From Escherichia coli (GTDB lineage Bacteria > Pseudomonadota > Gammaproteobacteria > Enterobacterales > Enterobacteriaceae), in the NCBI GenBank assembly GCA_032372955.1, contig GCA_032372955.1_4725.1: a DNA stretch of 64,000 nucleotides; one strand, given 5' to 3'. This document shows positions 34,857-60,513 of this stretch, piece by piece. Positions within the stretch are counted from its first letter, which is position 1. Each line of letters opens with the position of its first letter. A program made the translations under genes and the position numbers. The notes under the pieces are model-generated. The model was not told the DNA's origin, did no database searches, and saw only the letters and a list, made by a program, of their open reading frames with translations.

Positions 34857-34931
34857 GAGGGCGATGACGTAGAACCTTATCTTGACGAAATAGAAGCAAC
34901 TAACAACCATTGCTAAAGGAGGACGCCTGTA

Positions 34932-39928: not shown

Positions 39929-39947
39929 TAAGAAGGAGTTGTGGGGT

Positions 39948-40745: not shown

Positions 40746-40818
40746 GGCTGTAATTTTTAACTAATATTGACTATCATCTGAACCAGAAATTGATTCACAC
40801 TACGTAACGAGGCTGAAA

Positions 40819-41610: not shown

Positions 41611-41745
41611 CAATGCTTTAGCATCGCATTCTGAGTCTTCGATTCAGAAGGTAACGCGAATATTTTCCGTTAGTGCAAGGTGTCTCGCTTCGGCGGGATG
41701 CCTTGCATGCTGAGCGATAACTCAGCCGGAATCCAAAATTATTCA

Positions 41746-41765
41746 CGCTTATATTACCTTTGTGG
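41746..41765 (+). promoter_or_regulatory. TATATTAC element (early-promoter-like)
   Basis: cgctTATATTACctttgtgg about 60 nt upstream of the start at 41815. Confidence 0.45.
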
Positions 41766-41814
41766 TAGACGTCATAGAATACGTTTTAACAGGGAACCGC
41801 GAAAAGAGGTTGTT

Positions 41815-43401: not shown

Positions 43402-43402
43402 A

Positions 43403-44989: not shown

Positions 44990-45005
44990 TCCATAGGTCC
45001 CCTGT

Positions 45006-45028
45006 TGTAGGGGGGACCGTTGACGTAA
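45006..45028 (+). other. GC hairpin downstream of gene 43403
   Basis: ggtcccc tgttgta ggggacc; no T-run. Confidence 0.35.
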
Positions 45029-45045
45029 AGAAAAGGAAATACAAT

Positions 45046-46326
45046 ATGTCGAAGCTTATCGAAGCTTATCGCAAAGCACTACAGAGCGTTAACTATTTTG
45101 AGAATGACGCCCACGAATTAGAATATCGTTTTACGGATGGGGATGGTAAAGTTGTTGCGGTTGCCGCTACCGTGGAAAGCATGCCGCTGCTGATGCCGGT
45201 TTCCGAAGTTCGTACCGGAAATCAGCTGGCTGAACGTGTGCTGTTCCATCCGCTAAGTGAAGACGTGATGAACGGCGAATCGGAAGTACTTCAGTTCCTG
45301 CGTCGTGCGATGGTTGTTCGTTTTAATGCCACGCTATGCTCCATGCTGATTTGGATGGTTGAAACCGCAATCAATCCTAAAGAAGCAAAACGTTTCGGAC
45401 CGAAGCAAAAAGAGTTCTTCAACATCCTTGCGGACGCCAGCGATAAAACATTAACGACCCTGGGCAAACTGGTCACCGTTTGGCTGAAACGTGACACACC
45501 GTATACGCTGTCCAAAATTTATCTTCGTCGTACTGGTGCAACCTACATGGGTAAGAAGATGACCCGTGTTGCGGTCGTTACTTTCCCGTTCATGGAAGAA
45601 GAACACATCAGCACGAAAGATAAGAAAACGTACTGGTGTGGTGTTGAGATTTCCAAGAAAGATCTTAACATGCTGAGAAACCTGGTTGAGTACGTTATCC
45701 CGCACGCGGGCGAAGTAAGTGAAACGTACAATGCTGGGTCAAGCGATCCTCATGCTCCGTATTTCGATTGTCTTATCCACAGCTTCGCTAAGCTGATGGA
45801 ACCGCTGAACCATCTCATCAAACTGTTTGGTGATAAGTACGACGGTAAAGAGAACGGTTATTGTGATGTTACCTGGGTCGAGGATTTTGAACCGATCAAT
45901 CAACATCGTGGTCAGATTCCGCCAGCGAAATACAACATGGGTGTAACGCTGAACAGTCGTCCACAGCCGACGGTTAAGCCAAACCCATCAGCAGCTGCAC
46001 ATGAAGGTATGCAACCGCGTCCTGCTTCAACAGGCAGTGTGATCGATAACCTGTTGGGTAAAACCGCACCTGTCCAACCTAATCAGTGGGAAAGTGGTGG
46101 TAACCAACCGGCAGGTAATAGTACGTTTGATGCGTTGATGAACCGTGTTGCGGAACGTAACGGTACGATGTTCAATAATGCTGCTTGGCCAGGCATGGGC
46201 ATGCAACCTGCTGGGTGGGGGATGCCGCCAGCACCGCAGTCGCCAAACGGTTTACGTCGTCGTGCTGAGATGGAACGTAACAACATCCTGAGCGCGTGGA
46301 CAGGACATACTGTAAATCGTTTCTGA
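45046..46326 (+). CDS. hypothetical protein with Pro/Gln/Gly-rich C-terminus
   Basis: 426 aa; aagga RBS; 10-nt tandem duplication gaagcttatc x2 at the start. Confidence 0.55.
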   Translation: MSKLIEAYRKALQSVNYFENDAHELEYRFTDGDGKVVAVAATVESMPLLMPVSEVRTGNQLAERVLFHPLSEDVMNGESEVLQFLRRAMVVRFNATLCSMLIWMVETAINPKEAKRFGPKQKEFFNILADASDKTLTTLGKLVTVWLKRDTPYTLSKIYLRRTGATYMGKKMTRVAVVTFPFMEEEHISTKDKKTYWCGVEISKKDLNMLRNLVEYVIPHAGEVSETYNAGSSDPHAPYFDCLIHSFAKLMEPLNHLIKLFGDKYDGKENGYCDVTWVEDFEPINQHRGQIPPAKYNMGVTLNSRPQPTVKPNPSAAAHEGMQPRPASTGSVIDNLLGKTAPVQPNQWESGGNQPAGNSTFDALMNRVAERNGTMFNNAAWPGMGMQPAGWGMPPAPQSPNGLRRRAEMERNNILSAWTGHTVNRF

Positions 46327-46357
46327 TGTATTAAGTCATCGAACGACGGCATAAATG

Positions 46358-46386
46358 CCCTCCCTACGCTTTACGCTGTGGGAGGG
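46358..46386. terminator. bidirectional hairpin between convergent genes
   Basis: ccctccc ... gggaggg. Confidence 0.5.
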
Positions 46387-46391
46387 TTATC

Positions 46392-46757
46392 TTAAGCGCT
46401 GTAGTGGATTGTGCGGTACTGTTGTTTTAATGTGTTGATTGCGCTTGTATCGACAATCTTCATGGTTAGAACATCGGCGGTGTATTCCGTAGGGTCGCGA
46501 TAACCATTGAGTCTCATGGTTATCCAGTGCATTGGTTCACTGCCCTCACCGAGCAGAACACGGCACAATCCATAAAAGTTACCATCGAATTCGTAGGCGC
46601 GTTCGGGTGGTATGTCTATCGTAGAGACCAGTCCGGCATTTTTGAAATATTCCAGATGCATCTCAACAACGTTCCTGAAATCAAGATCGTGGATGAGGTC
46701 ATCGGGGTTTGTCTTAAGAAAGTCGTTCAGGGGCGTGTTAGACATGACGTACCTCAA
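46392..46757 (-). CDS. hypothetical protein
   Basis: 121 aa; gaggta RBS on minus strand. Confidence 0.5.
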   Translation of the reverse strand: MRYVMSNTPLNDFLKTNPDDLIHDLDFRNVVEMHLEYFKNAGLVSTIDIPPERAYEFDGNFYGLCRVLLGEGSEPMHWITMRLNGYRDPTEYTADVLTMKIVDTSAINTLKQQYRTIHYSA

Positions 46758-46776
46758 TTCGATAATAGGAAGTCCT

Positions 46777-48945
46777 ATGCATTATAAAGAAAAACCTCTT
46801 TATGAATCTGTGAAGCAGGCAATCGCTGAAGGTAAAATCATTCCCATTAAACAGGAGTATACTGGCGTAGGGACTGGACTTAACGGGCTACTGCATTATA
46901 ACTCAGCACAGCGCGCTGCGATGTTTGGTGGACATCTTAGCCAAGCGTTGGTTATCAAAGATGCGAAACCGTCCCGACTGACGACGGGGATCGAATACCA
47001 GTACGGACAGAACACGTGGTCAGTAGAGTTTCCAGTCGAATCTCGCATCATAGATATCATCCCACGTTTCCAACCGGGGCATACAGCAAACAGCATCAAA
47101 ACAAACACGATGCATTACGTGCTGTATGAAAACCAAGAGGATGGTAACCGTCACGAGCTACGCTTGCTTGAAGTGCCTGAGCATCACATCATGCATCAGC
47201 AGTACGGTTTCCGTTTTCGACCAACCAACTTGTTCCATTCCCTTCGTCGAGGCCAGATCGTACCGCGATATTCTCGTTTGATGGAAAGCCCAGCGATCAA
47301 TCAAGAAACGCGCGAGTGGGGTTACGGTCGCGATTGCAAAGTGTGTTTCGGTAGCTTCTATCAATGTATCGAGGATGGTGGTGTTGCCCGTCGTGGTGTA
47401 TTGAAGCATTTCACCAGTACCGGCATTGAGAAGCGAACGATCACATCAGGTAAATCACGATACCCAATCAATCTCTACGGTGATGATGAGGTATATCAAG
47501 CAATACCCGAGAACGGTGAGCGTATTCGTAAGGATGGGTTGCTTGCCGCAACACGCGAAATCGATCCTATCCTTAGCGTTGTTGACATGATGACGTGTAA
47601 CCTTCAGCGTGTGGATTATGTTTACGACGATCTCACTTACGCTGAACCGAATGCGCGTGTAACGGATATCGATGTTGTCAGTGATCGACATCGTCGTTCT
47701 GGACGTCAAGCCCGCGAGCGTGCGATTATGATGGAAGAGAAGATGCGTCCTCCGTATCGTCAATTCCTGAAATACGAGAACGCAATCGGTTTGCTTTACA
47801 CCCGAATTCAGGATGCTGTTCGTAAGTACGAACGTGAACGCGTTGGTACGTCGATACGTCATCATCAAACGGTGATGTGGTGGTTGAACCTGGCTGATGC
47901 TGAACACGGTATTGATATCCGCAATCCTAACGGACAGCTACGTCATGTGTTACCAACCCGCGATTACCGTAAAGAGAATCTCGATGATTGGCGTGTGACC
48001 ATCACGTACACGTATGACGTTGTTCCAGGTATCGGGTTTAAATTCACCGGTATGGCGGGTGATAAATTCGTTGTAACCGACATCATGGAAGACGATGAAA
48101 TGCCGGTTGACCAATGGGGTAACGTTGCGGACTTCATGTTCGACGATAGTACGGTAATCAAAAGGATGAGTTTAAGTCGTGTTAACGCACCGTACATCAA
48201 CGGCGTTGGCGATCAGATCATGCGTGAACTGAAACCGGTGATGGATGCAGGCGATCTGGAGACCGCTTGGAACACACTGATGCGCTACTACTATATCGTC
48301 AGTCCTGAATTCGTGGAACAGGTTGTTGAAAAATACTGTATCACGGATGAGGATAAATGGGATCATTTACGGTACGTACAACGCCACGGTACGGAAGTTT
48401 ATATCCCGACGGACAGTATCGCAGCCGGTTCAGAACGTATGGAGAATCTGATTCGTGAGTTCCCGTTGAAGAAAGGTCCTGTACGGTATCGTGGACGTTC
48501 TGGGCAATGGCGGACAACCAAGAACGATATTGCGATCGGCGACACGTACATCATGATGTTGGAGAAGACGGCGAACGACTGGTCAGCTGTGGGTATTCCT
48601 AAACTGCAAGCGCACGGATTACCGTCGAAACTCAGTAATAGCGATAAATACAGTTCTCCGGGTAAAGAGCAACCGACTCGTTACTGTGGTGAATCTGAAC
48701 ATCGTGAAGTTACCGCCTTTGCTGGCGGATGGTTCGCAAGCGTCTTTATGGATTATGCGAACAATCCAAAACAGGTGGATAGCATCACTGAAAGCATCTA
48801 CGCGACCGATAAGCCGTCAGCGATTCCTATTGCGACCAACTTCGAGAAGTATCCCATTGGCGGTAACCGTGCGTTGAGGATTCTGTATCATCAGCTGAAC
48901 GTTGCTGGCGGACAAATCATCGACGCAGATGACTGCGAAAGCTAA
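46777..48945 (+). CDS. multisubunit RNA polymerase beta-like subunit, C-terminal fragment
   Basis: [33 protein letters not shown]...RMSLSRV aligns to E. coli RpoB [61 protein letters not shown] aligns to GGQRFGEMEVWALEAYGAA. Start moved to ATG 46777 (aggaag RBS) because the track start 46612 overlaps the divergent gene. Confidence 0.8.
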   Translation: [722 protein letters not shown]

Positions 48946-48956
48946 CGAGGTATACG

Positions 48957-49367
48957 ATGGATCATTCGGATAGCGTGATAGCAATGATTACGCCACATCT
49001 GTTGCGCAACCTTCCAGCACCGAACGTCAAAACGAAGAATCATAATCGTCTTCTTGGATTATATCGAGACTGGCGGGATTCTGAAGGATTGACACGGATC
49101 GCGAACATCGATGCGGCTTATGATGCATTTCGTGACGAACACGATGAAAACGGCAATCTTAAGCCCATTGCAGCGCAGTTACGTAAAGATGTCGGTGATG
49201 ATGAAGTTCGCGATCTCCGCATCTGCGAAGAGGTTGCTACGAAGACCGCTCGGGGGTTAATGTTGCTGGAACTCTTCGGTGAACAAGGCCGTACCGAATT
49301 GCAGTCTGAACTTATCGCTTGCTTCGAAGACACGTTGTTAGAATTTAAAGATCGTCCTCCTTTCTGA
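48957..49367 (+). CDS. hypothetical protein
   Basis: 136 aa; gagg RBS. Confidence 0.5.
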   Translation: MDHSDSVIAMITPHLLRNLPAPNVKTKNHNRLLGLYRDWRDSEGLTRIANIDAAYDAFRDEHDENGNLKPIAAQLRKDVGDDEVRDLRICEEVATKTARGLMLLELFGEQGRTELQSELIACFEDTLLEFKDRPPF

Positions 49368-49387
49368 TGCATATTACGCCTCCTCCT

Positions 49388-49417
49388 GCCCATGTGGTGG
49401 GAGGAGGATGTTTATGC
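49388..49417 (+). terminator. GC-rich hairpin
   Basis: cctcctcc ... ggaggagg. Confidence 0.45.
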
Positions 49418-49420
49418 TGA

Positions 49421-49429
49421 TTAAAGGGA
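49421..49429 (+). promoter_or_regulatory. TTTATGCTG element after hairpin (late-promoter-like)
   Basis: One-mismatch variant of TTTATGCCG, about 50 nt upstream of the start at 49477. Confidence 0.35.
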
Positions 49430-49476
49430 CGGTTTATTTTAACTGCTTAACACTAGAATGTGAAGACTTAAAGAGG

Positions 49477-49833
49477 ATCCCTGGTATGAGTGATAACGAA
49501 AATCGTTCCGTAGCAGTGAACTACGTCAACAATTTAATCTTGCAAGAACTTACTCGTGATGCAGTAAGGGCATCAAATAAGCTAGGTTTTATCAACCACC
49601 ACGGACACATCATCGACATTAACAATCCTGACTGCCAGATCGTCGACATACGCAGCCAGGTCGAACACGTCGCTAACGTCATGGTTAAAGCTGAATACTG
49701 GCTGGAAACCATGAAAGAGCATGTTATCCAACCCCAACAATTAGATATCGACGTTGATGAAATTATTGAACAAGTTGAAGAGTCGTTCAATGAACTTGTC
49801 AACCACCGTATCGAAAAAGTTTTAAAGTTTTAA
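49477..49833 (+). CDS. hypothetical acidic protein (paralog of 49867)
   Basis: Start at MSDNENRS with aagagga RBS; shares NNLILQELTRDAV with RKLTLQELARPIG in the next gene. Confidence 0.45.
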   Translation: MPGMSDNENRSVAVNYVNNLILQELTRDAVRASNKLGFINHHGHIIDINNPDCQIVDIRSQVEHVANVMVKAEYWLETMKEHVIQPQQLDIDVDEIIEQVEESFNELVNHRIEKVLKF

Positions 49834-49866
49834 ACGATTGCTAACATTCACCTGAGGAAAAACATA

Positions 49867-50229
49867 ATGAACTTAATTCGCAAATTAACACTGCAAGAAC
49901 TGGCCCGTCCAATCGGTATTGAGGCAGCACTGCATGATGAAGATAGCAATGCGCTACAAGTCGCCGTGTTTACAGCAACCACGAACTACGCTGTTGATGT
50001 AGGTACCATTGAACCCGTACGTAGTTTTGAAGAAGATGCAACCGTTATTGATACCGTTGCTCAAAACGTCGCACAGGGTTTGGTTGTACTTGACCTGGCT
50101 GGTGATGCTGGTGAAGAAGCACTGCGCGAAGCGATGGCTGATTACGCAGCTAACTGGGATACCACCGTCACAATGAAAACATTCGATGGTTCTGAAGAGG
50201 AAGATACGGAAGAAGACAGCGTAGAATAA
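49867..50229 (+). CDS. hypothetical acidic protein (paralog of 49477)
   Basis: 120 aa, strongly acidic C-terminus GSEEEDTEEDSVE; gagga RBS. Confidence 0.5.
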   Translation: MNLIRKLTLQELARPIGIEAALHDEDSNALQVAVFTATTNYAVDVGTIEPVRSFEEDATVIDTVAQNVAQGLVVLDLAGDAGEEALREAMADYAANWDTTVTMKTFDGSEEEDTEEDSVE

Positions 50230-50243
50230 TAAACACGAATAAC

Positions 50244-50295
50244 CCTCCCTCTCCCATGCGGAGGTGGGAGGGAATTATGTCGTTGTTTTTATTTT
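50244..50295 (+). terminator. hairpin plus T-run
   Basis: ccctccctctcc catgc ggaggtgggaggg then ttgtttttatttt. Confidence 0.55.
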
Positions 50296-50386
50296 CCGTT
50301 ATTTCTGACGGAAATAAAGCAATATATGCAAAGGCAACGTATATCCAACATGTCATCTATTTCTACGTAGAAGAGGAAATGAGATT

Positions 50387-50872
50387 ATGGAGATAGCACA
50401 CGCCAACATATACGGCGATGGGTTAACGGTATATGAAGAAACATGGGCGAATGAACGAATTGTTTGGCTTAACGGATTCAATGTCAAAACGATCGAGGAT
50501 CCTTCGTTAGGCGTCGCATATACGTATCCTGTCGATACCTTAGAACAGCTATTTCAGGATATTCGTAACGACCTCATTGAAGTGGAGGGTGTGGATGGAA
50601 CGGTTTATGGCCGAGTCGATAAGTTCGGACGTGACCTTCGAGGCGATCATCCAAACATCATTTCTATTGGTGTTTATCCGTATTCGACATTCCCGTTTGT
50701 TGATGGCGTTTATGTTATCCGACCAAAGTTGGTTGGTGAAGAAAACGTATACCGTAACGATAAAGGATTGCGTGTGACCGAAGTGAGACAGATAAAGGGC
50801 TTCATTCTCACGGTTGTTTCGGATATATCAGACGCTATGGATCCGTACGCTCTACGACAGAAAGCCGGGTAA
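50387..50872 (+). CDS. hypothetical protein
   Basis: 161 aa; gagga RBS. Confidence 0.5.
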   Translation: MEIAHANIYGDGLTVYEETWANERIVWLNGFNVKTIEDPSLGVAYTYPVDTLEQLFQDIRNDLIEVEGVDGTVYGRVDKFGRDLRGDHPNIISIGVYPYSTFPFVDGVYVIRPKLVGEENVYRNDKGLRVTEVRQIKGFILTVVSDISDAMDPYALRQKAG

Positions 50873-51017
50873 TGTCGCCGACTTTTACTCCGGCAGTGGA
50901 GATATATTAACACCTACATAACCTAAGAGAAGGGATTCCCGATGCTATCATGGCGATAGTAAATTCCAACGGAATTGGTAAACCGTATGATAAAACCATT
51001 TAAATCGGAAAGTAATA

Positions 51018-53024
51018 ATGATTACAACACAGACAACCACCACGAAACGTCGTGTGAGGGCACGCGAGCTTATGCATTGGCCGGTTGATGAGGTGTTCGA
51101 ATGGGCACAGCCTAATGACCGTGTGTATATCGAGATGGACGATGGCGTTCATGAATTGCGTGCACGACGCATTTTCTTTAGTTACATGCACTGGTCTGTG
51201 CATCGCATGTATCCTGAGACCCCACTAACAAAAGAGAACCTGGTTGATAAACGCAAGTTCACAGCGGGTTCATCGGTTGCGTTGCAAAGCGCAGCGTATC
51301 GTCAATGCATGTATGCTTATCCACAAGAGAATCGTGAGGTTCTCTGGAAAGCATTGTTCGATATGTTTAACAATGTGTATAACTTCTTTACGTATGCGTT
51401 GGAGGAATACGTAACAACGATTTGCGCGGACGATTTTTATCAGATTACCGTACACCCCGAAGTTAAGAAAATCATCGCCGAAGCGGAACCCACCCGCGAA
51501 GGTATCGAAAGCGCATACAAGAAACTGACAAAGGTACTGAGCACCGATAAAACGTTACACGCAAACCCTATTGCACGTGCGGTAAGAACCGAACACGTTT
51601 CGATCGGACAGGTGCTGCAGTGTATTGGGATGCGTGGATTCTTGACTGATATTAACTCCGAGATATTCCGTGACCCAGTGATGCGGTCATACGCAGCTGG
51701 TTTGATCTCTCTTCCAGACAGCTTGAAAGAAAGTCGTTCTGCGGCAAAATCGTTGCTGTTCAACAAAGAGCAGATTAAAAAGTCTGAATATTTCGGTCGT
51801 GAACTTCAGATAGCGACAGCGGTTGTACAACGACTCCATCCTGGTGATTGTGGTAGTAAAGAGACCATCCCGATGCCAATCCGTGATGAGACCGACCTGC
51901 GTGGCTTCCACGGTCGATTCATTATTCGTGACGACGGTTCGTTGGTAGCGATACAACCACACATGAAAGAATTGATCGGCACCACAGTGCGCATGCGCTC
52001 TGTTAACTATTGTCATCATCCCGATCCTGCTGGGGTATGTACGACGTGTTACGGTGAATTAAGTCATAACTTCGCATTGACTGATAATGTCGGCGACGGT
52101 GCAGCGCGTACCTGTTCGCAACAGGTAACGCAGAACATTCTTTCTACCAAACACCACGATGGTTCGTCAACGGTATCCACAGCACCAATCCCACCGGAAT
52201 ATCAACATATCCTTCGCTACAGCCAGAACATGAACGACATCAAACTCGCACGTGAGCTGAAAGGTAAACACGTGTTGATTAAGATGAAGTTAGGTCTTGC
52301 GAACATGTTGTACGACGTAGCGGAAGCGGAAGAAATCAGTTCGCTGATACCGCAACGTCTGTTTAACATGACGCTTTGCGATATGGAGATTTACGACAGG
52401 AAAGATGAAAGCTATCGTAAGCTCAAAGTCAATTTCGATTTCTGTGGTCGTCCTGTTGTACCGAGTAAAGCGTTTATCCGGTATCTCAAACGCCATAGCT
52501 GGGAAGTGACGTCTGACGGGATTGTGATTTTCGACTTGAAACATTGGGACAATTCACGTACGTTATTCCAGATGCCGTTAATCCACAAAAACATGATGGA
52601 ATACGCAAAAGAAATCGAACGTGAATTCAAATTCGGGAAAGGTTCTTTCAGTGCCGGATTCCTCTCGGAAGACGAAGCAACACCGGAAGAAGTTGCAAAC
52701 GTGCTGTACTATTGGCATCGCCTGTGTGCTCAGCGTCTGCGAATGAACCTTTCGCATCTCGACGTTATTCTCTACGCCAGCATGATTCGTTCACCGCACA
52801 CGAAAGATTATCGCATGCCGAAACAGGGAACAACACGATACTTCAGTACCTTCAAGAAGAACATGAACATGCGCTCCTTGAGTATGAAGTTCGCTCACCA
52901 AGAGCAGCTGGATGCGTTCCAAAACCCGAACAGTTATATCCCAACCATGAAGCCGGATCATCCGATCGACTACATGCTGTTACCGCGTAAAGAACCTAAA
53001 CCGGAGGATGTAATCACGTTATGA
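51018..53024 (+). CDS. multisubunit RNA polymerase beta-prime-like subunit, C-terminal fragment
   Basis: VRMRSVNYCHHPDPAGVCTTCYGELS aligns to E. coli RpoC [22 protein letters not shown] (Zn-binding region); GDGAARTCSQQVTQNILSTKHHDG aligns to [28 protein letters not shown]. Confidence 0.75.
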   Translation: MITTQTTTTKRRVRARELMHWPVDEVFEWAQPNDRVYIEMDDGVHELRARRIFFSYMHWSVHRMYPETPLTKENLVDKRKFTAGSSVALQSAAYRQCMYAYPQENREVLWKALFDMFNNVYNFFTYALEEYVTTICADDFYQITVHPEVKKIIAEAEPTREGIESAYKKLTKVLSTDKTLHANPIARAVRTEHVSIGQVLQCIGMRGFLTDINSEIFRDPVMRSYAAGLISLPDSLKESRSAAKSLLFNKEQIKKSEYFGRELQIATAVVQRLHPGDCGSKETIPMPIRDETDLRGFHGRFIIRDDGSLVAIQPHMKELIGTTVRMRSVNYCHHPDPAGVCTTCYGELSHNFALTDNVGDGAARTCSQQVTQNILSTKHHDGSSTVSTAPIPPEYQHILRYSQNMNDIKLARELKGKHVLIKMKLGLANMLYDVAEAEEISSLIPQRLFNMTLCDMEIYDRKDESYRKLKVNFDFCGRPVVPSKAFIRYLKRHSWEVTSDGIVIFDLKHWDNSRTLFQMPLIHKNMMEYAKEIEREFKFGKGSFSAGFLSEDEATPEEVANVLYYWHRLCAQRLRMNLSHLDVILYASMIRSPHTKDYRMPKQGTTRYFSTFKKNMNMRSLSMKFAHQEQLDAFQNPNSYIPTMKPDHPIDYMLLPRKEPKPEDVITL

Positions 53025-54595
53025 AGTTAGCTCGTATCGACGTCTTCTCGCATGGCATGAGGCTGAGCGGATACGGACTTCGATTTGCCCATCTTATCGG
53101 CCATTACCTTCGAGACCGTTGTTTGCATCTGAGGAAACGGCGTGACCCTCGTACACGGAGAATGGTTACCGATACCATAAACACGTATGCCGCGGCAAGA
53201 AGCGATTATAGCGAGGTATACTTACTCCGCGAACAGTTGAAATCGTTTTTGGATTTTATCTTTTCCCGAGGGATACGAAAAGAGTGGTTGGAAATCGTCT
53301 ATCACGATCCGGTACCAGGTAAGGAAGTGGAGTTCGTAAAGAAATGGAAGTTTCCATGGCGTGAAGATCAGCAAGAATGGTTGGAGTACATGGACGGGGG
53401 TAAGGATACCCCCTTCAGAATGAGCCTAAACACCGCTCAAACGGGGTCGGGTAAAACAGCCATGTCTCAGGAGATTACCTTCCGACGCGGTGTACGGACG
53501 GGCATCATTCTGTCGCCGAGATACATGCCAGGCTGGCGAAGCTCACTACTGAACTTCTTCGGAATGGAACCAGGGGACGTTATCGAGATACGCGGGAACG
53601 CTAAGGAGGATCCACCGCATCCCGACATTCCTCGTTACAGTATGTTGGAGTTTCAAACCTTGGTTGAACAAGGTGAACTCGACTTCAAAATCGCATTGTT
53701 CTCCTTGAACATGTTCCAACGTTATATTGCGGACTACGAGAAGAATAACTGCGTTGCGCCATATGCCTTTCATCCCGCTGAGTTTTGGGAAAAGACCGGC
53801 ATAGGTTTGCTGATTCATGACGAGTGTCACGAAGCATTGCATTTCTTGTTTAAGGTCAAGTGTTACGCCAATATTCCGGAAATCATTTATCTGTCGGCAA
53901 CAGCGGTATCCGATGATCCGTTTATCGAACAGATGCTGTATTTGATGTATCCGAAAGAAGCCCGTTATGCGAAAGGCGAATACAAGAAATACATTGCGGT
54001 AAATGCGGTAACGTACCGACTACGCAGTACAGATAAAGTCAGATACAAAGGGTTTGGTGGAGCTTATTCGCACACGATATTCGAACAGTCTATCATGAAG
54101 AACAAGCAACTCAAACTCGCGTATTTTAACTTCATCTATACCGTTATTATCAAGGGTTTCATGAACCAGTATCAGGAAGGTATGAAGATGCTGGTGTATT
54201 GTGCGACCGTTGATATGTGTAAGTCGTTGTCGCATTATCTCAGTGAACGTATTCCTGAGCTAGAGATCGGTCCTTATACTGCTGAAGAAGATTTCATGGT
54301 CTTGCTGGATAACGATATTAGCGTTACGACAGTGAAATCGGCAGGTACCGGTATCGACCTTCCTGACTTGGTGATGACGTTCATGACGTTAGCGATGGGG
54401 TCACGAACCGGCAACATTCAGGTGTTGGGACGACTGCGTCAGCTGAAAGGGAAGTTTGAAGGAATGACGCCAACGTTCTGGTATCTGGTATGTACTTCTA
54501 TCGAAGCGCACCGTAAATACCATCAGCGCAAGGTGGAGTTCTTCAGCGACAAAGTGCTTACCCAGCGTGTTATCGATGAAGATTTTGAATTGTAA
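53021..54595 (+). CDS. SF2 DEAD/DEAH-box family helicase
   Basis: Walker A AQTGSGKT; motif II LLIHDECHEA; motif III YLSATAV; motif V/VI KSAGTGIDLPD and QVLGRLRQ. Confidence 0.75.
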   Translation: MKLARIDVFSHGMRLSGYGLRFAHLIGHYLRDRCLHLRKRRDPRTRRMVTDTINTYAAARSDYSEVYLLREQLKSFLDFIFSRGIRKEWLEIVYHDPVPGKEVEFVKKWKFPWREDQQEWLEYMDGGKDTPFRMSLNTAQTGSGKTAMSQEITFRRGVRTGIILSPRYMPGWRSSLLNFFGMEPGDVIEIRGNAKEDPPHPDIPRYSMLEFQTLVEQGELDFKIALFSLNMFQRYIADYEKNNCVAPYAFHPAEFWEKTGIGLLIHDECHEALHFLFKVKCYANIPEIIYLSATAVSDDPFIEQMLYLMYPKEARYAKGEYKKYIAVNAVTYRLRSTDKVRYKGFGGAYSHTIFEQSIMKNKQLKLAYFNFIYTVIIKGFMNQYQEGMKMLVYCATVDMCKSLSHYLSERIPELEIGPYTAEEDFMVLLDNDISVTTVKSAGTGIDLPDLVMTFMTLAMGSRTGNIQVLGRLRQLKGKFEGMTPTFWYLVCTSIEAHRKYHQRKVEFFSDKVLTQRVIDEDFEL

Positions 54596-54663
54596 CGATA
54601 GCGTTTGGTGGAATCAAAAATCAATGAGGGGCCTCGAAGCAGGCCCTTATAACCGGAGCATGT

Positions 54664-55557
54664 ATGTCACAAGTAAGAGGCGTGAAACAAATCGCCAATT
54701 TAATGATGTTAAGTGGTGAGACACAGCAGGAACGTGAGCTGGTCTTCTTTGGTAAACTGGCTGAAGACGGTGTTGAACGTCTTCGTCAAGTCGCATCAAA
54801 AATCGAACATATGGTGCAACATCAATGGTTGTTTGATAACACAGCCGTTGGTGGTGTGAAAGGTCAGGTGCGCGCACGTGCGATACAGATCGATAACGAA
54901 GAACCGAAATACATCATGACTACGAAGGTGTATCGCGGTCCAGGTGATGCAACGGAAAGCGAAGTCGAAATTCCGGTCGAGATGTTTGACGCGATCGAAC
55001 GTATGGCTCCTGAAGGCCAAGCGAAAACACGTTACACCGTAGAAAGCGCTGATGGTCTGGCATGGGAAGTTGACGTCATCTATACACGAGACCACCAGGT
55101 TGTTGAGTGGACGAAGATCGATATTGAAATTCCGGCTGGAACTTATCTTCGTGAAAATCCGACGTTGCCTGAAGCGTTGAGTGATGTGTTTGTGCAGATG
55201 ATCGATCGTCCTCACGCAAAACGTACGGATGAAGAGAACGCTATTCTTGACGATCTGTTCAAGAACAAATTCTACATCAAGAACGATAAGGTTGTGGTGA
55301 GCAAACTTCCTGAAGGGTTTGAACGCTTTGTTGATCCTAAGGTCGTCATTGAAATGCTGATGCCTGCCATCGAACCTCTCGTAAATATGATTCCAGCGTT
55401 AAGCTACAACGAGAAGTATTTTGATTTCGATGAAGAAGGTCAGCTGAAAAGCGCTTTACAAGAACTCAAGCATGCCGCACTCAGTGTCTTACGTTTAAGT
55501 AAGAAGAACAACGAAGAGTGTGATTGCGACCAAGATAAGAATGGAGAAAATGAATGA
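54664..55557 (+). CDS. hypothetical protein
   Basis: 297 aa; ggag RBS. Confidence 0.5.
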   Translation: MSQVRGVKQIANLMMLSGETQQERELVFFGKLAEDGVERLRQVASKIEHMVQHQWLFDNTAVGGVKGQVRARAIQIDNEEPKYIMTTKVYRGPGDATESEVEIPVEMFDAIERMAPEGQAKTRYTVESADGLAWEVDVIYTRDHQVVEWTKIDIEIPAGTYLRENPTLPEALSDVFVQMIDRPHAKRTDEENAILDDLFKNKFYIKNDKVVVSKLPEGFERFVDPKVVIEMLMPAIEPLVNMIPALSYNEKYFDFDEEGQLKSALQELKHAALSVLRLSKKNNEECDCDQDKNGENE

Positions 55558-55892
55558 ACGTACAACAAATCTGTTTAATCGATGATCAGTTCAGTGAAAT
55601 TAACGGTGAGCGTTACAATGTTGTAAGCTGGACGCTTTCGATGGTCCAGGCTGCTGAACAATTCCCGATGGACAAACACAGCCCTGAAGCGTTCCGCGAT
55701 GTCTATAAACAAACCCAGCTGGTTGACCGTAAACTACCCGAAGGTTACGACGACGAGAAACTACTGAACGATATTAAGCGTGCGTTCGCCTTACACATGC
55801 TAACCTTAACCGAAGACGATCCTTTAGAAATCCCTGACGAGTGGCTTATCTACGATATGGAAGCCTACTTCATGAAAGAACTCTGGTTCTAA
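55554..55892 (+). CDS. hypothetical protein
   Basis: 112 aa; ggaga RBS; ATGA overlap with upstream stop. Confidence 0.5.
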   Translation: MNVQQICLIDDQFSEINGERYNVVSWTLSMVQAAEQFPMDKHSPEAFRDVYKQTQLVDRKLPEGYDDEKLLNDIKRAFALHMLTLTEDDPLEIPDEWLIYDMEAYFMKELWF

Positions 55893-55910
55893 ATTAAATT
55901 GACATAAACC

Positions 55911-55967
55911 TTCCTCCCCGCCCGTTATGGGTAGGGAGGAAGATATGCTAACTATTTTTTTTTTTAC
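55911..55967. terminator. bidirectional hairpin with long T-run
   Basis: cttcctccc ... gggaggaag then a T11 run, between convergent genes. Confidence 0.55.
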
Positions 55968-57415
55968 TCGGTGAAGTGTGGTTTATAACCAGCCTGCCAT
56001 GCGGCGGTCATGGCGTCGTAGTTGATGTGTGAAGTGCCTGCCGGGAATGTCCAACCACTCAGATCCTGATTGAACGCGAAGCACCCAGACAACATATTGT
56101 TTGCATTCTTAACAGACGAAACATCCCACGAACCGATCGGTTGGTTGAATGTAGCGCAACCGTAGAAGAGGTCCTTCATTGAAGTAATGTTGCGGGTGTT
56201 CCATTTGGTGATGTTCACGTCGTTAATAACGCTGCATCGCGTAAACATACCTTCTAACGATGTCCAGTATGCCGGGATATAATCGGGAACCTTAGTTAAA
56301 CTGTTCGCCGCAAGGAATGATGGGGCCTTAGGTAATCCGTTGTTCCAGTCAACGATTTCAGTGATGTTACCACCGGTGAAGCTTTGCTGTACCTCTGTAT
56401 CTTCAACATTGGTAGGGGTACCCGTAGCGACGATCGTACGTTCCGTAGTGTCCGCATAAGTGTGCCGATATTCATTATCGCCTGAGTCCTGCGTCGTCTT
56501 ATTCCCATCACCCCAATCGATATTGACATTTGTCCAACCATCTAATGACAATATAATGCTGCCGCCTTTTGTTTTAAGAACGTATTGGATTGGTTTAGGT
56601 GAAGCGTGACCAACAACCATAGCACCCTTAAGGCTACCGATAACCCAATCTTTCTTGGTGGTTACCAGTAACTCGGCGTCACCGTATGACCGCACCTCTA
56701 CTCTACGAGCGTCTTCGCTTCCGTTAATTGTCTGCATTGCTTGTTGCATTTGTTCGCTGGTAATATCACCATAACGAACCATGACGTTCAGGATATTCTG
56801 GAAGTACGCAGCGTCAAGGACACCTTCAGTTGTTTCGGCATTTCCGTTTTCGCCGATAACCGAGGTTGTTGCTAACAGTAACGAACCAGATGTGTCAGCT
56901 TCAACGCCATCCAGATAAACCAGATTCGTAAGATTGGTTTGCTTGATGATCGTAATCAAGCTCAACGTATCGTTAGCGATATTGAACTGAAGATTACCAG
57001 CCCAAACATAAGACGTGTTTGCAACCGGAACCGTAATGTCTTTAATACCGGTGTCTTCGAACGTAATCTGCTTATTCAGCTCGGATTCGAGGAAGTCGAC
57101 GGTTGTGTCGAATACCAATCCGTAACGTTCAGCGATCGTGTTGATGATATCCCTTACGGCGGTATCATTTTTAACGATAACCCGTAACGGGATCCCAGTG
57201 AAGTTTTTAGCGATGTCTCGACGGATATAGGTCAGGGACTGCTCGTTAAAGTAACGGCTAGCATCGTTCGGTTTGATCGTAACAACAACCGTTCCGGGCA
57301 CTTCGCTTACCGGTTCAGTTAGTTCAAATTTTACGTCGTCTAATGTCAGCTGTAAGCTGTTTTTGCTATTTACTAACGCGAGAAGTTCGTCTTTCCAGCT
57401 TTGTTTGAGTTTCAT
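55964..57415 (-). CDS. BspA-like/DUF285-type repeat protein (candidate fibre or adhesin)
   Basis: 483 aa; C-terminal repeats GMFTRCSVINDVNITKWNTRNITSMKDLFYGCATFNQPIGSWDVSSVKNANNMLSGCFAFNQDLSGWTF match the F..C..FNQ.I..WDVS.V..M pattern. Confidence 0.45.
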   Translation of the reverse strand: MKLKQSWKDELLALVNSKNSLQLTLDDVKFELTEPVSEVPGTVVVTIKPNDASRYFNEQSLTYIRRDIAKNFTGIPLRVIVKNDTAVRDIINTIAERYGLVFDTTVDFLESELNKQITFEDTGIKDITVPVANTSYVWAGNLQFNIANDTLSLITIIKQTNLTNLVYLDGVEADTSGSLLLATTSVIGENGNAETTEGVLDAAYFQNILNVMVRYGDITSEQMQQAMQTINGSEDARRVEVRSYGDAELLVTTKKDWVIGSLKGAMVVGHASPKPIQYVLKTKGGSIILSLDGWTNVNIDWGDGNKTTQDSGDNEYRHTYADTTERTIVATGTPTNVEDTEVQQSFTGGNITEIVDWNNGLPKAPSFLAANSLTKVPDYIPAYWTSLEGMFTRCSVINDVNITKWNTRNITSMKDLFYGCATFNQPIGSWDVSSVKNANNMLSGCFAFNQDLSGWTFPAGTSHINYDAMTAAWQAGYKPHFTE

Positions 57416-57481
57416 TTATTCTGCCTTATTAAATAAGTACAACGCATATACGTCATACGATCTTGCAACAAATACAGCATA

Positions 57482-57509
57482 AAGCTCTGCATGATGTCAG
57501 GTAGAGCTT
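57482..57509 (-). terminator. hairpin downstream of minus-strand helicase gene
   Basis: aagctct ... agagctt arms. Confidence 0.35.
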
Positions 57510-57514
57510 CTTAA

Positions 57515-59596
57515 TCACCATTCCAAGAACGCAGGTCGTGGTTTAATATCGTATTCCGTGGTGTTTACGGTAACGTATTGATCGTATCCTTCCATCGCCA
57601 ACGTTTCTTGCAAGTTAACATCATCTTGCTTGTTCACAACATATTTGACACCCGTGATTTCTTCAACAAGCTGTCGACTTAACTCCATGATTTCGTGGCT
57701 ACGTGTAGAAACGTTACCCTCGCTTCCCGTATCTAACATGAAACGATAAATCCGAACAGGTTGCGTTTGCCCTACACGGTCAAGACGGCTGATGGCTTGG
57801 ATTTCATCGGATGAACGCCATGGGTTGTTCAGGAAAAGACCGACATTACACATCAGCATCGGAACCCCTTCAGCTAAGCTATCAAATGTTGCGATAGCGG
57901 GACCGCTGTCAGGATCATCGCGTAAGCGAGCAAGTATCTGGTTGATGTTCTTGTTGGTCTTCCCGTAAATGGGTTCAGGTAAGAAACCCGCATCACGAAG
58001 CATGTTGTCGACGCGCTCAACCACCTGAACGTACGACGTGAAGATCAACACTTTGGCTTCAGCGTTGTTGATGTACCCTTCGAAGTCGATGTACTCCACC
58101 ATGTCGACATGACACCGAATGCGGGCTGCACCTAGAACACGGGCCAACGCTTCACCCTGAATTTTCAACCCAACGTACTTGATGACACTCTTGGCGTCTT
58201 TGAAAGCAATCCTTAAATCGGAAGGAAGAACCGGCATGATAGAACGTTTTTCAAACGCATTGCAGAACATCGCATCTTCTTTGTCTCTGACGGGATCGTA
58301 ACCTTTCTGGAAACGAGCGACGATCGATTCGTATCGAGATAGCTCTTTACGTTCTCCGTCGGTACGAATAGTCTTACGATAGTAGTCCAAGGCGTCATCA
58401 AAAATCTTTCTGTAGTGTCCCCAGTTATCCTTGTAATACTTCGCCCGATCGCGTACAAATATCGCCATGTCGTCGCGGATACTCGAGATGGTATAATCGC
58501 TGCCGTTAGGGAGCTTCACGTAAACATCCTGAACTTCCGGTCGGGTTTTACGATAAGCTTCTTTAGGTACAACATGCATCATGAACCCAAGACGATGTCT
58601 GAGGATATCGTTAGCGCGACTGCTGGTTAAACCGTAAATCGCTTTGAAGCTATCGACCACCTGTCCTTGGAACATCGGGTCGATACAACCTAAACATGGG
58701 ATCATCTCAGAACCCATCTGTTTAACGGGCGTACCCGACATAAACAAGACATGCACATCCGCATTCATGGTCTGACGCATCGTCTGTACGAGATCAACCA
58801 ATCGTTGGGAACGTTGGCTGTTCTTGTCGTTGAAGTTATGGCTTTCGTCAACCACGATCAACACGCGCTTCGCTGTGCGTTTATGCTTGATCATTACATC
58901 GTTTAATAAACCCATCGACTCGTAATGCAGAAAATAATACTTATCGCTTTTCTGCAACTGTGATGGTGGCATTGTATCTGACCAGAACGCGGTTTCTGTT
59001 GCGGGGTCAACGATGGCTTTGTTTACATCGGATTGCCATGCTGAACGCATGGTGTTCTTAGGACAGCAGACCACAAATACATCGACGTTCATTGCGGCGC
59101 TTAAAGCCAATGCGGTGATTGTTTTACCGGCACCAGCACCCATCGCACACACGTATCCTTTCAGTCGGTATTTAGGTACGTTACGGTTATAGATGTCGAT
59201 AAACTCATCTTGATAATCGAACAGGGAGAGCGTTAGCATTTTGTTCATGCGTGCTTTATCGAGGATTGCAGGTTGTTCGATTGTGGTATTTTGCAGCCAC
59301 GTTTCCTGCAGCAGTACCTCAATAAGGTGTTTCAGCATGCGTTTGTTACTGCGGGTATTCTTTGCTTCGATGATCGTTTCGAGAATATAAACGAAATCGG
59401 GAAGGTAAAAGTTGTGGAGACTGAGTCCACTAGAAGAGAAATTACGAAACATATGTTTCATAAATCGGGAGGTACCCCATATTCGCTGAATGTCATCTGA
59501 AAGACGCCAGGCATCGATACCCCCGATATGCACGGTGTTGTTACTCTGATTTTTAACCGCTATTCGGTTCATTAAACGATTGATTCTATCCAACAT
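57515..59596 (-). CDS. SNF2-family helicase/ATPase
   Basis: Walker A GAGAGKT; DExH VVDESHNF; motif III MSGTPVKQ; motif VI QAISRLDRVGQTQPVRIYR. Start set at ATG for MLDRINRL; the track extends to 59644. Confidence 0.8.
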   Translation of the reverse strand: MLDRINRLMNRIAVKNQSNNTVHIGGIDAWRLSDDIQRIWGTSRFMKHMFRNFSSSGLSLHNFYLPDFVYILETIIEAKNTRSNKRMLKHLIEVLLQETWLQNTTIEQPAILDKARMNKMLTLSLFDYQDEFIDIYNRNVPKYRLKGYVCAMGAGAGKTITALALSAAMNVDVFVVCCPKNTMRSAWQSDVNKAIVDPATETAFWSDTMPPSQLQKSDKYYFLHYESMGLLNDVMIKHKRTAKRVLIVVDESHNFNDKNSQRSQRLVDLVQTMRQTMNADVHVLFMSGTPVKQMGSEMIPCLGCIDPMFQGQVVDSFKAIYGLTSSRANDILRHRLGFMMHVVPKEAYRKTRPEVQDVYVKLPNGSDYTISSIRDDMAIFVRDRAKYYKDNWGHYRKIFDDALDYYRKTIRTDGERKELSRYESIVARFQKGYDPVRDKEDAMFCNAFEKRSIMPVLPSDLRIAFKDAKSVIKYVGLKIQGEALARVLGAARIRCHVDMVEYIDFEGYINNAEAKVLIFTSYVQVVERVDNMLRDAGFLPEPIYGKTNKNINQILARLRDDPDSGPAIATFDSLAEGVPMLMCNVGLFLNNPWRSSDEIQAISRLDRVGQTQPVRIYRFMLDTGSEGNVSTRSHEIMELSRQLVEEITGVKYVVNKQDDVNLQETLAMEGYDQYVTVNTTEYDIKPRPAFLEW

Positions 59597-59636
59597 AATC
59601 GCGCTCGATTTAATAGAATGTATGATAAAAACTCCT

Positions 59637-59664
59637 CCCCACACCTTTCCTGGGGAGGAGGCCG
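59637..59664. other. GC-rich hairpin in divergent intergenic region
   Basis: 9-bp stem ctcctcccc/ggggaggag. Confidence 0.35.
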
Positions 59665-59739
59665 GGGATGTCCCTTAAAATGACGTCATTCGACAATCCA
59701 TAAAATACGATGGGCATCGAAACGGACCAACACAAATCC

Positions 59740-59759
59740 TTTCACGGCTATATTACTTA
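59740..59759 (+). promoter_or_regulatory. TATATTAC element (early-promoter-like)
   Basis: tttcacggcTATATTACtta, identical 20-mer to 36460-36479; about 50 nt upstream of gene 59805. Confidence 0.5.
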
Positions 59760-59804
59760 CGTGGGTAAAGAAAATTTATTAATAGATTCAAAGAGGTACG
59801 TGCG

Positions 59805-60491
59805 ATGAAATCTTTATATTCGTTGGATTGTTTAAATTTCTTATCTCAGGAAACACGCGCTGAAGTAATTGAAAATATTCGGAAGAACGATCTTGCCCAT
59901 CAAGAAGAACATGTGCTTGCTGTTGTTGAACTGGCAAATGAACTTGCTGATGTGGTTGGTATCATCAAGCCCACGGAACGTCGTCGTCTATTAACGGCTG
60001 CTTTTATGCATGATATCGCTTGCCACGAAAACAGAACATACCACCACCTTATCGGGGGTATTCGTGCGTCGGTTATACTGCTTCGTAACGAGCAGCATAT
60101 TTTCACACCGGAAGACATCGAGGAGATACGCGTACTTATTGCTGAGCATCGTGCGTCGTATTCTGGTCCACGTAGCTCGGTTGCTTCTCAGGTGCTTCGT
60201 CTGGCGGATATGGGTCGTCTCGATAGCGAACGTTTTGGTATCCGTGCAATCGAACATCGTTACGGTCAGATGAGCAAAGAGTTCGCATTACAGGAAACCG
60301 CCGACTATCTTATTTCTAAATTTGCGCCTGATGGCTACGCTTGGATTACGTATCCGGCGTTAGGTCAGCAACTTTATATGAAAGAGATTGCGGTGATTAA
60401 ATCGCTCTGTGCGGATCGTGATAAACTCATTGCTTATTTGGATGATGTTTATACGTATGTTGAAAAGAAACATGGTGAAATCATGTGTTAA
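59805..60491 (+). CDS. HD-domain phosphohydrolase-like protein
   Basis: 228 aa with H...HD...D pattern (EEHVLAV, FMHDIACH, LIAEHRASY, LRLADMGRLD). Confidence 0.45.
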   Translation: MKSLYSLDCLNFLSQETRAEVIENIRKNDLAHQEEHVLAVVELANELADVVGIIKPTERRRLLTAAFMHDIACHENRTYHHLIGGIRASVILLRNEQHIFTPEDIEEIRVLIAEHRASYSGPRSSVASQVLRLADMGRLDSERFGIRAIEHRYGQMSKEFALQETADYLISKFAPDGYAWITYPALGQQLYMKEIAVIKSLCADRDKLIAYLDDVYTYVEKKHGEIMC

Positions 60492-60513
60492 ACATGAAAG
60501 CGGAGAATAATGA

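Follow-up and report, generated by a model that had tools for sequence, protein, structure and literature searches.

Split RNA polymerase beta and beta-prime genes of a Goslar-like chimallivirus and their assignment to the non-virion enzyme

A stretch of 64,000 nucleotides from contig GCA_032372955.1_4725.1 (assembly GCA_032372955.1, filed under Escherichia coli), called the window below, was analysed for two genes that encode separate parts of an RNA polymerase (RNAP), the C-terminal part of the beta subunit (beta C) and the C-terminal part of the beta-prime subunit (beta-prime C). The whole window is about 95-97% identical at the nucleotide level to Escherichia phage vB_EcoM_Goslar, a nucleus-forming E. 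coli jumbo phage of the Chimalliviridae. According to local alignment it is collinear, in reverse orientation, with Goslar positions 203238-141525, the exceptions being two indels near 33.5-34.3 kb. When positions 46612-53024 were compared by megablast with the GenBank phage records, only Goslar was matched, with 95.2% identity and 100% query coverage. The genes around the two polymerase fragments are the following (ORF, open reading frame; nvRNAP, non-virion RNAP).

46777-48945, plus strand: nvRNAP beta C-terminal subunit, uninterrupted; ortholog of phiKZ gp71-73 and Goslar gp171
48957-50872, plus strand: small-ORF insertion, equivalent to Goslar gp170-gp166, with ORFs at 48957-49367, 49408-49833, 49867-50229 and 50387-50872
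51018-53024, plus strand: nvRNAP beta-prime C-terminal subunit; ortholog of phiKZ gp74 and Goslar gp165
53021-54595, plus strand: non-virion SF2 helicase, weakly XPB/Rad25-like; ortholog of phiKZ gp75, RAY gp250 and Goslar gp164

The two polymerase fragments and the gap between them

The beta C gene starts with the ATG at 46777 and encodes 722 amino acids. The program-made ORF reaches further upstream to 46612, where a conserved gene on the minus strand overlaps the extension, and none of the homolog alignments includes this part. A phmmer search of all PDB sequences aligned residues 33-712 of the protein with residues 17-692 of chain 7OGP_C, the phiKZ gp71-73 polypeptide (E 5.7e-86), and the family phrog_3295 was matched with E 1.2e-180. 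The E. coli beta subunit was matched only over its residues 1063-1241, by residues 420-601 of the phage protein, and thus the gene represents the C-terminal part of beta. Similarity to the nvRNAP of Bacillus phage AR9 was weaker (E 2.3e-17). Both lysines of the FKMTDFHGGKG motif, K386 and K394 in phiKZ (PMC8287921), have aligned counterparts in the window protein, which is identical to Goslar gp171 at 721 of 722 positions. In phiKZ the beta C gene is split between gp71 and gp73 by a separately annotated ORF, gp72 (phiKZ 64459-65708), whereas the window gene is a single ORF; the interruption point corresponds to about residue 429 of the window protein (window 48060-48100), where the genes of the window and of Goslar are both continuous.

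The beta-prime C gene encodes 668 amino acids, of which residues 11-654 aligned with residues 4-671 of 7OGP_D, the phiKZ gp74 chain, in the same phmmer search (E 1.3e-86). The match to phrog_3015 had an E-value of 4.7e-170 and that to AR9 nvRNAP one of 1.3e-13. With the NCBIfam rpoC model the protein aligned at about positions 668-910 of 1147, which is the bridge-helix and trigger-loop part of cellular beta-prime and was matched among the beta-prime chains of the PDB as well; by homology beta-prime C is predicted to carry these two elements. Identity to Goslar gp165 extends to 666 of 668 residues. The matches of both proteins are far beyond chance. Profile similarity to RNAP subunits, on whose presence a preliminary description of this DNA had staked its proposal, was therefore found for both genes, and the coordinates and identities given there for the two fragments, as well as the ATGA in which the helicase start at 53021 overlaps the beta-prime C end (ATG 53021-53023, TGA 53022-53024), were borne out.

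The same description had the two genes 2 kb apart, as in split polymerases of the phiKZ type. Indeed, the genes are split and 2072 bp separate them in the window, but the spacing between gp73 and gp74 of phiKZ is only 31 bp, with no such insertion. The gap holds four ORFs of 120-161 amino acids and the site of a 31-codon ORF annotated as Goslar gp167. None of the four small ORFs had a PHROG or Pfam match. Their products are 74-98% identical to those of Goslar, below the flanking polymerase proteins (99.7-99.9%); the homolog of Goslar gp169 has 141 instead of 116 amino acids and is 74% identical. The 2-kb gap is a Goslar-lineage-specific insertion of accessory genes and not a property of split RNAPs. 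A 12-bp GC-rich hairpin was noticed at 49379-49407, between the first and the second ORF of the gap.

Goslar gp171, gp165, gp164, gp161 and gp160 have equivalents in identical order in the window, with amino acid identities of 99.9%, 99.7%, 97.9%, 95.4% and 98.8%, respectively. In Goslar, too, the helicase start lies in an ATGA and small ORFs fill 2 kb between the beta C and beta-prime C genes, and the nucleotide divergence between both phages, 3-9%, is nearly all synonymous. In RefSeq, Goslar gp171 and gp165 are both named "RNA polymerase beta subunit" and the next gene, gp164, "DNA helicase". The RNAP genes are thus already annotated, and also experimentally classified, in a phage whose proteins are 99.7-99.9% identical, and the finding as such is already known.

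Assignment to the non-virion polymerase

All paralogs were compared directly, by use of 250 kb of phiKZ sequence and of those parts of Goslar that hold the virion RNAP (vRNAP) genes. With the two exons of its phiKZ counterpart, gp71 and gp73, beta C gave 140.5 and 123 bits, and with the virion paralogs Goslar gp207 and phiKZ gp178 it gave -1.3 to -1.9 bits. Beta-prime C scored 294.8 bits against phiKZ gp74, 17.8 against Goslar gp78 and 5.2 against phiKZ gp80. The vRNAP genes gp178, gp149, gp180 and gp80 of phiKZ (gp207, gp196, gp205 and gp78 of Goslar) had no orthologs in the window, and no vRNAP subunit maps to it. A tblastn comparison of the window ORFs with phiKZ revealed unbroken collinearity of window positions 30335-54595 with phiKZ gp54 (chimallin) through gp75. 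Besides the genes listed above, this block includes the following features.

30335-32230: chimallin, counterpart of phiKZ gp54, placed by collinearity with the annotated Goslar genes
32323-34916, plus strand: nvRNAP beta-prime N-terminal subunit gene with three introns; homolog of phiKZ gp55/56.1 and Goslar gp247+gp185
41815-43401, plus strand: fifth, sigma-like nvRNAP subunit, with ATG at 41815; homolog of phiKZ gp68 and Goslar gp175
43403-44989, plus strand: PicA/Imp1 nuclear protein importer; homolog of phiKZ gp69 (tblastn) and Goslar gp174
45046-46326: homolog of phiKZ gp70 (tblastn), role unassigned

Taken together, the two fragments are almost certainly the beta C and beta-prime C subunits of the five-subunit nvRNAP of a Goslar-like chimallivirus. 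The preliminary description had held that virion and non-virion enzyme could not be told apart from sequence. Nevertheless, full-length orthology to gp71-73 and gp74, scores of at most 18 bits against the virion paralogs and the gp68-gp75 gene order allow the non-virion assignment from sequence alone.

If the fragments were instead vRNAP subunits, they would be packaged in the virion, injected with the DNA and used for transcription of the early genes. Both enzymes are split beta/beta-prime polymerases, beta-prime C is faintly similar to Goslar gp78 (17.8 bits), and the opposite strand has two genes for virion proteins 3-6 kb downstream. However, the full-length best matches are non-virion proteins, with a margin of 277 bits for beta-prime C and no significant match of beta C to gp178 or gp207, and the synteny follows phiKZ gp68-gp75 rather than the gp176-gp180 or gp79-gp80 regions. 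Virion mass spectrometry of Goslar identified five vRNAP subunits, gp78, gp196, gp205, gp207 and gp210 (bioRxiv 10.64898/2026.04.21.720040), all encoded outside the stretch equivalent to the window. These were estimated at about 13 to 21 copies per virion, in contrast to 0 and 0.25 for gp171 and gp165, the near-identical counterparts of beta C and beta-prime C. Table S4 of the same study gives the label "nvRNAP" to gp171, gp165, gp175 and gp247, the latter two with 0.58 and 0.49 estimated copies. We consider the vRNAP reading highly improbable and effectively refuted. Orthology, synteny and purifying selection were established here, and presence in or absence from the virion is taken from the literature on the near-identical Goslar proteins.

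Comparison with the Goslar genes revealed 64 synonymous and 1 nonsynonymous codon difference for beta C, and 68 synonymous and 2 nonsynonymous ones for beta-prime C, which argues for strong purifying selection on both genes. This bears on a further explanation, by which the fragments would be non-functional, decaying remnants of acquired cellular rpoB and rpoC genes. The genes are split, and they resemble the cellular RNAP models only very weakly, with scores under every curated cut-off. Nevertheless, the ORFs are intact and can be aligned from one end to the other with an enzyme that is solved and active, the catalytic-site lysines are kept, and the two genes together differ from Goslar in 132 synonymous and only 3 nonsynonymous codons. 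The selection pattern refutes this explanation, to which we give even less credence than to virion packaging.

A few points weigh against the assignment to nvRNAP. The completeness of the enzyme in the present genome is inferred from Goslar, as the beta N-terminal (beta N) subunit lies outside the window. Absence from the virion was measured in Goslar, which is a different strain. The Pfam and NCBIfam models of cellular RNAP match the two proteins weakly, below their cut-offs; this is expected because the clade is very divergent, and the subunits were identified by PHROGs and PDB sequence search, the Pfam and NCBIfam RNAP models alone being insufficient. Finally, no promoter was identified for the RNAP cluster by a sigma-70 scan and an exact k-mer search for a repeated phage motif, the latter yielding nothing convincing in positions 41000-60500. 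The scan of the same region counted 25 sigma-70-like promoter sites compared to 31 ± 5 in shuffled sequences, and 14 terminators compared to 19. It is uninformative because the phage has its own polymerases, although the scarcity of sigma-70-like sites would fit independence from host RNAP. Among the evidence gathered, nothing contradicts the nvRNAP assignment.

Four of the five phiKZ nvRNAP subunits have full-length homologs in the window. The sigma-like subunit matched phiKZ gp68 with E 5.5e-32 (phmmer) and occupies the syntenic position (tblastn). In agreement with the preliminary description, no beta N gene was found: neither phiKZ gp123 nor Goslar gp39 had a tblastn match in the window at E<=0.01. 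That description had also named gp123 as the counterpart of the beta fragment; the true counterpart is gp71-73, and gp123 is the other beta-like piece. The candidate for Goslar beta N, gp39, is located at Goslar 39828-41624, about 100 kb away and thus far outside the corresponding stretch, so that its absence is due to where the window ends and is no argument against membership of the other subunits.

The nvRNAP of phiKZ consists of five polypeptides without alpha or omega subunits (PMC8287921, PMC7598289). Its gp71-73 supplies one double-psi beta-barrel with two DNA-contacting lysines and the flap (PMC8287921), gp74 carries the bridge helix, the trigger loop and a zinc finger, and beta-prime N the Mg-binding DFDGD, while gp68 is found at the position of sigma and is required for assembly of the active enzyme and for promoter binding (PMC8287921, PMC7598289). 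The phiKZ subunits are products of early genes made by the injected vRNAP, the enzyme transcribes late promoters in vitro, and the nvRNAP of chimalliviruses acts within the chimallin shell (PMC8287921, PMC7598289). By homology to phiKZ, the window beta C would supply the double-psi beta-barrel with its two lysines and the flap, and beta-prime C the bridge helix and the trigger loop. They would assemble with beta-prime N (NADFDGD, 32323-34916), the sigma-like subunit (41815-43401) and a beta N subunit encoded elsewhere, with no alpha or omega subunit. As judged from phiKZ and Goslar, the subunit genes may be transcribed early by the injected vRNAP and the proteins translated in the cytoplasm before their import into the phage nucleus with its chimallin boundary; there the enzyme would transcribe late and possibly middle genes without host RNAP.

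The closest system with solved structures is phiKZ nvRNAP itself (gp55/56.1, gp68, gp71-73, gp74, gp123; PDB 7OGP, 7OGR, 8QUE, 9RJS), with which the window shares the gene order gp54-gp75, a helicase gene overlapping the end of the beta-prime C gene, and the position of the beta-prime split after the double-psi beta-barrel, as is also found in cyanobacteria (PMC7598289). Amino acid identity between both is only 24-31%, and the beta-prime N gene of phiKZ is interrupted once, by a segment that holds an HNH gene, in contrast to three introns without an HNH gene in the window. The nvRNAP of AR9 (PDB 7S00, 7S01, 7UM0) also has split beta and beta-prime subunits and a fifth subunit for promoter specificity, but is much more distant from the window proteins and gave partial alignments only; AR9 has a uracil-containing genome and no nucleus, unlike a Goslar-like phage (PMC7598289). 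The practical value of these results is a correct label for the genes, which confirms the existing Goslar annotation and decides for the non-virion enzyme by sequence.

The two helicases and the other genes of the window

The ATGA at 53021-53024 combines the stop codon of beta-prime C with the start codon of the first helicase, and a GGAGGA sequence lies 12 nt upstream; the helicase is probably co-translated with beta-prime C. Its protein has a Walker A motif AQTGSGKT and a motif II DECH and matched phrog_16 (E 1.5e-26), which together place it in SF2 in general. The tblastn match to phiKZ gp75 had an E-value of 1.7e-50 with 28% identity over 520 amino acids. Among curated families only the NCBIfam XPB model was matched, over residues 254-509 and with 29 bits compared to a cut-off of 610, a score that does not confer XPB/Rad25 membership. 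Pfam ResIII and DEAD remained below their cut-offs, and a PDB sequence search gave no significant match. The Goslar homolog gp164 is listed as "Rad25-family helicase" with 0.39 estimated copies per virion (Table S4, bioRxiv 10.64898/2026.04.21.720040).

The position of this gene is conserved: phiKZ gp75 and RAY gp250 occupy the same spot directly after beta-prime C. The start of phiKZ gp75 overlaps the end of gp74 by 17 nt. In RAY, gp248 and gp249 are nvRNAP beta 2 and beta-prime 2, and gp250, a core-genome SF2 helicase found inside the phage nucleus, follows directly. A chimeric tblastn query built from the last 200 amino acids of beta-prime C and the first 330 of the helicase was covered to at least 80% by a single place in 138 of 238 phage records, and the linkage is thus old and conserved. 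In Noxifer (NC_041994.1, 58463-60016), RisingSun (MF459646.1, 39942-41405) and GXNNA8 (PV400810.1, 2664-4190) the tblastn alignment ran from the last part of beta-prime C into the first part of the helicase in a single reading frame, which hints that the two may be fused, or one stop codon apart, in some chimalliviruses. The helicase gene of the sister genome IMGVR_UViG_3300011560_000001 (about 14688-15371) has an in-frame insertion of about 227 codons within the Walker A codons, reading GSGK/AIPLN...WQCT...VTHN/TAMSQ; it ends in His-Asn followed by Thr and is intein-like. This insertion had no Rfam and no Pfam match, and the window allele lacks it (site at about 53455).

The second helicase belongs to a different unit on the opposite strand, and two plus-strand genes precede that unit.

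54664-55892, plus strand: two conserved hypothetical genes, homologs of Goslar gp163 and gp162
55964-57415, minus strand: virion fibre protein with DUF7941 and leucine-rich repeats (DUF285/BspA-like); homolog of Goslar gp161
57515-59596, minus strand: virion-associated SNF2-family SF2 ATPase; ortholog of phiKZ gp203 and Goslar gp160

The two hypothetical genes had no Pfam match, and the gp163 homolog matched phrog_14791 (E 1.4e-18). The fibre protein matched Pfam DUF7941 (E 1e-24) and DUF285 (E 1.2e-21). The ATPase, described before as an opposite-strand enzyme of the SNF2 type, scored above the Pfam cut-offs for SNF2-rel_dom (31.9 bits, cut-off 24.9), Helicase_C (30, cut-off 23.5) and ResIII (47.4, cut-off 22.5); it has GAGAGKT and DESH motifs and matched SWR1, ISWI and SNF2 chains in the PDB, so that it is an SNF2-family member as proposed. 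Its match to phiKZ gp203, annotated as a virion protein, reached 32% identity over 668 amino acids (E 1.2e-118, tblastn). By analogy with gp203 and with RAY gp131, a virion SF2 helicase, the window ATPase is probably virion-associated. The Goslar homolog gp160, annotated as DEAD/DEAH box helicase, was estimated at about 10.6 copies per virion (range 7-17), near the vRNAP subunits gp207 and gp78, and gp161, described as a DUF7941 fibre protein, at about 111 (bioRxiv 10.64898/2026.04.21.720040). These copy numbers mark the minus-strand genes as a virion-protein unit that is convergent with the nvRNAP cluster and not part of it. Functionally, the two helicases fall into separate groups: the first is a nuclear, non-virion protein, whereas the second is a packaged component of the virion.

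It might nevertheless be thought that both helicases belong to a single functional module with the RNAP genes, as dedicated accessory motors of the polymerase. The ATGA overlap, the 17-nt overlap of gp74 and gp75 in phiKZ, the adjacency in 138 of 238 phage records, the localisation of RAY gp250 to the phage nucleus as the site of nvRNAP work, and the XPB model, which describes a transcription and repair translocase, as the sole NCBIfam match of the first helicase all agree with this. Yet the purified and solved phiKZ nvRNAP has five subunits without gp75 and is active on late promoters (PMC7598289, PMC8287921), gp75 was grouped with the DNA replication proteins in one phiKZ study, and the XPB score is far from its cut-off. 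Moreover, the gene of the SNF2 ATPase shares a convergent unit with that of a virion fibre protein, and the ATPase itself is packaged; it therefore cannot partner the non-virion enzyme at the time when that enzyme is made. A module of this kind seems unlikely to us. The gene arrangement kept from phiKZ to Goslar and in the 138 of 238 records suggests a related idea, by which the first helicase would be a dedicated accessory translocase of nvRNAP rather than a replication helicase, and might open promoters, act in termination or clear R-loops within the phage nucleus. On the same reasoning the SNF2 ATPase would be a RapA-like recycler of vRNAP. This idea is to be taken as speculative and doubtful. 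The ATPase is not a RapA equivalog, since the RapA model gave 16.7 bits compared to a cut-off of 576.

The remaining genes were placed by collinearity with annotated Goslar genes.

3942-6014, minus strand: tail sheath
11467-13698: terminase large subunit
21396-22376: PhuZ tubulin
26766-28919: DNA polymerase
38786-39928: SbcD-like nuclease

The importer encoded at 43403-44989 is identical to Goslar gp174, the PicA of that phage, at 528 of 528 residues. The window can thus be labelled as carrying four of the five nvRNAP subunit genes together with PicA, chimallin and both conserved chimallivirus SF2 helicases.

Putative introns in the beta-prime N gene

The beta-prime N gene is interrupted within its catalytic codons, and the following structure is predicted, all on the plus strand.

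32323-33565: exon 1
33566-33931: intron A, 366 nt
33932-33944: exon 2, micro-exon of 13 nt
33945-34323: intron B, 379 nt
34324-34336: exon 3, micro-exon of 13 nt
34337-34691: intron C, 355 nt
34692-34916: exon 4, annotated in Goslar as a separate ORF, gp185

Exon 1 matched PDB chain 7OGP_A with E 3.9e-59; this chain is gp55 fused to gp56.1, that is, the phiKZ homolog joined across its intervening segment. The program-made ORF 32323-33672 ends in a stretch without a Goslar counterpart. The boundaries of the inserts were taken from intron-less alleles. At the intron A site Goslar reads ...AAAGGTTATAATGCCGACTTC (KGYNADF), and the window reads AAAGGGT, then the 366-nt insert, then ATAATGCAGATTT, so that Goslar lacks exactly intron A. 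The metagenomic contig NFYZ01000026.1 reads ATAATGCTGATTTCGACGGGGACGCGATGAACAAC (YNADFDGDAMN), from which inserts B and C are exactly absent. All six boundaries are fixed in this way; U is the last letter of each 5' exon and G that of each insert. The inserts lie inside the NADFDGD codons, and this motif is in frame only after removal of all three. The spliced exons comprise 1494 nt and encode 497 amino acids, reading ...LKGYNADFDGDAMNNHIVPD, and the product contains KGYNADFDGDAMNNH; the junction peptide of the predicted spliced product is GYNADFDGDAMNNHIVPDIWTAK.

In an earlier spliced model exon 4 began 12 nt upstream. That model could be aligned through the motif with 201phi2-1 and RAY, whose genes are uninterrupted, and a 150-amino-acid query from it that spans all junctions was covered to at least 80% in 87 phage records. 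The corresponding 3' splice site of intron C at 34679 was rejected in favour of 34691, as the intron-less allele shows DGDA/MNNH.

In E-value mode three tandem matches to Rfam RF00028 scored 44, 30.4 and 17.6 bits and so fell short of the gathering score (50 bits), and at gathering thresholds Rfam yielded nothing in the whole window. Copies of the introns in sister genomes matched RF00028 over its full length (E 3e-5 to 3e-3). The z-score of the minimum free energy of intron A (-1.34) was not significant. Precise absence from other alleles, the terminal U and G and the restoration of the frame are all as expected for group I introns, and the three inserts are accordingly described as putative tandem, group I intron-like elements that would leave two micro-exons of 13 nt. 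None of them holds an endonuclease gene. Compared to Goslar, the window has one additional intron and lacks the HNH gene gp186.

The intron content of a 30-nt site was compared among five Goslar-like genomes.

Goslar (169281-168217): B, with HNH gene gp186, and C
Window (33566-34691): A, B and C, without an endonuclease gene
IMGVR_UViG_3300045988_173921: A, B and C, as inferred from its collinearity with the window (96.7%, only 4 gaps)
NFYZ01000026.1 (6620-8024): A only, holding a 322-amino-acid ORF with sub-threshold I-HmuI-like/HNH matches
IMGVR_UViG_3300011560_000001 (5241-5924): an intron at a fourth site (NA/DF), and C

An exact-match scan of IMG/VR for the junction of exon 1 and intron A found nothing, the sequence differing slightly in the one contig with the same layout. 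Single inserts occur nearby in other chimalliviruses, before NADF in phiKZ and LucasX, after DGD in PA7 and after DFDG in 2050HW, and the motif region of beta-prime N has no inserts in PCH45, 201phi2-1 and RAY. The catalytic-loop codons of beta-prime N serve group I introns as a landing pad that varies between strains. Group I introns in polymerase genes of chimalliviruses are already known, and a literature search found no paper on this arrangement in Goslar. The locus lies outside the finding on the C-terminal fragments and is the sole lead with research value. If intron content affects the competition of co-infecting phages, as was shown for PhiPA3 gp210, the beta-prime N locus would be a natural test case. 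The synonymous differences between window and Goslar cluster around the site of intron A, and intron A resembles intron B in its core and intron C at its 3' end.

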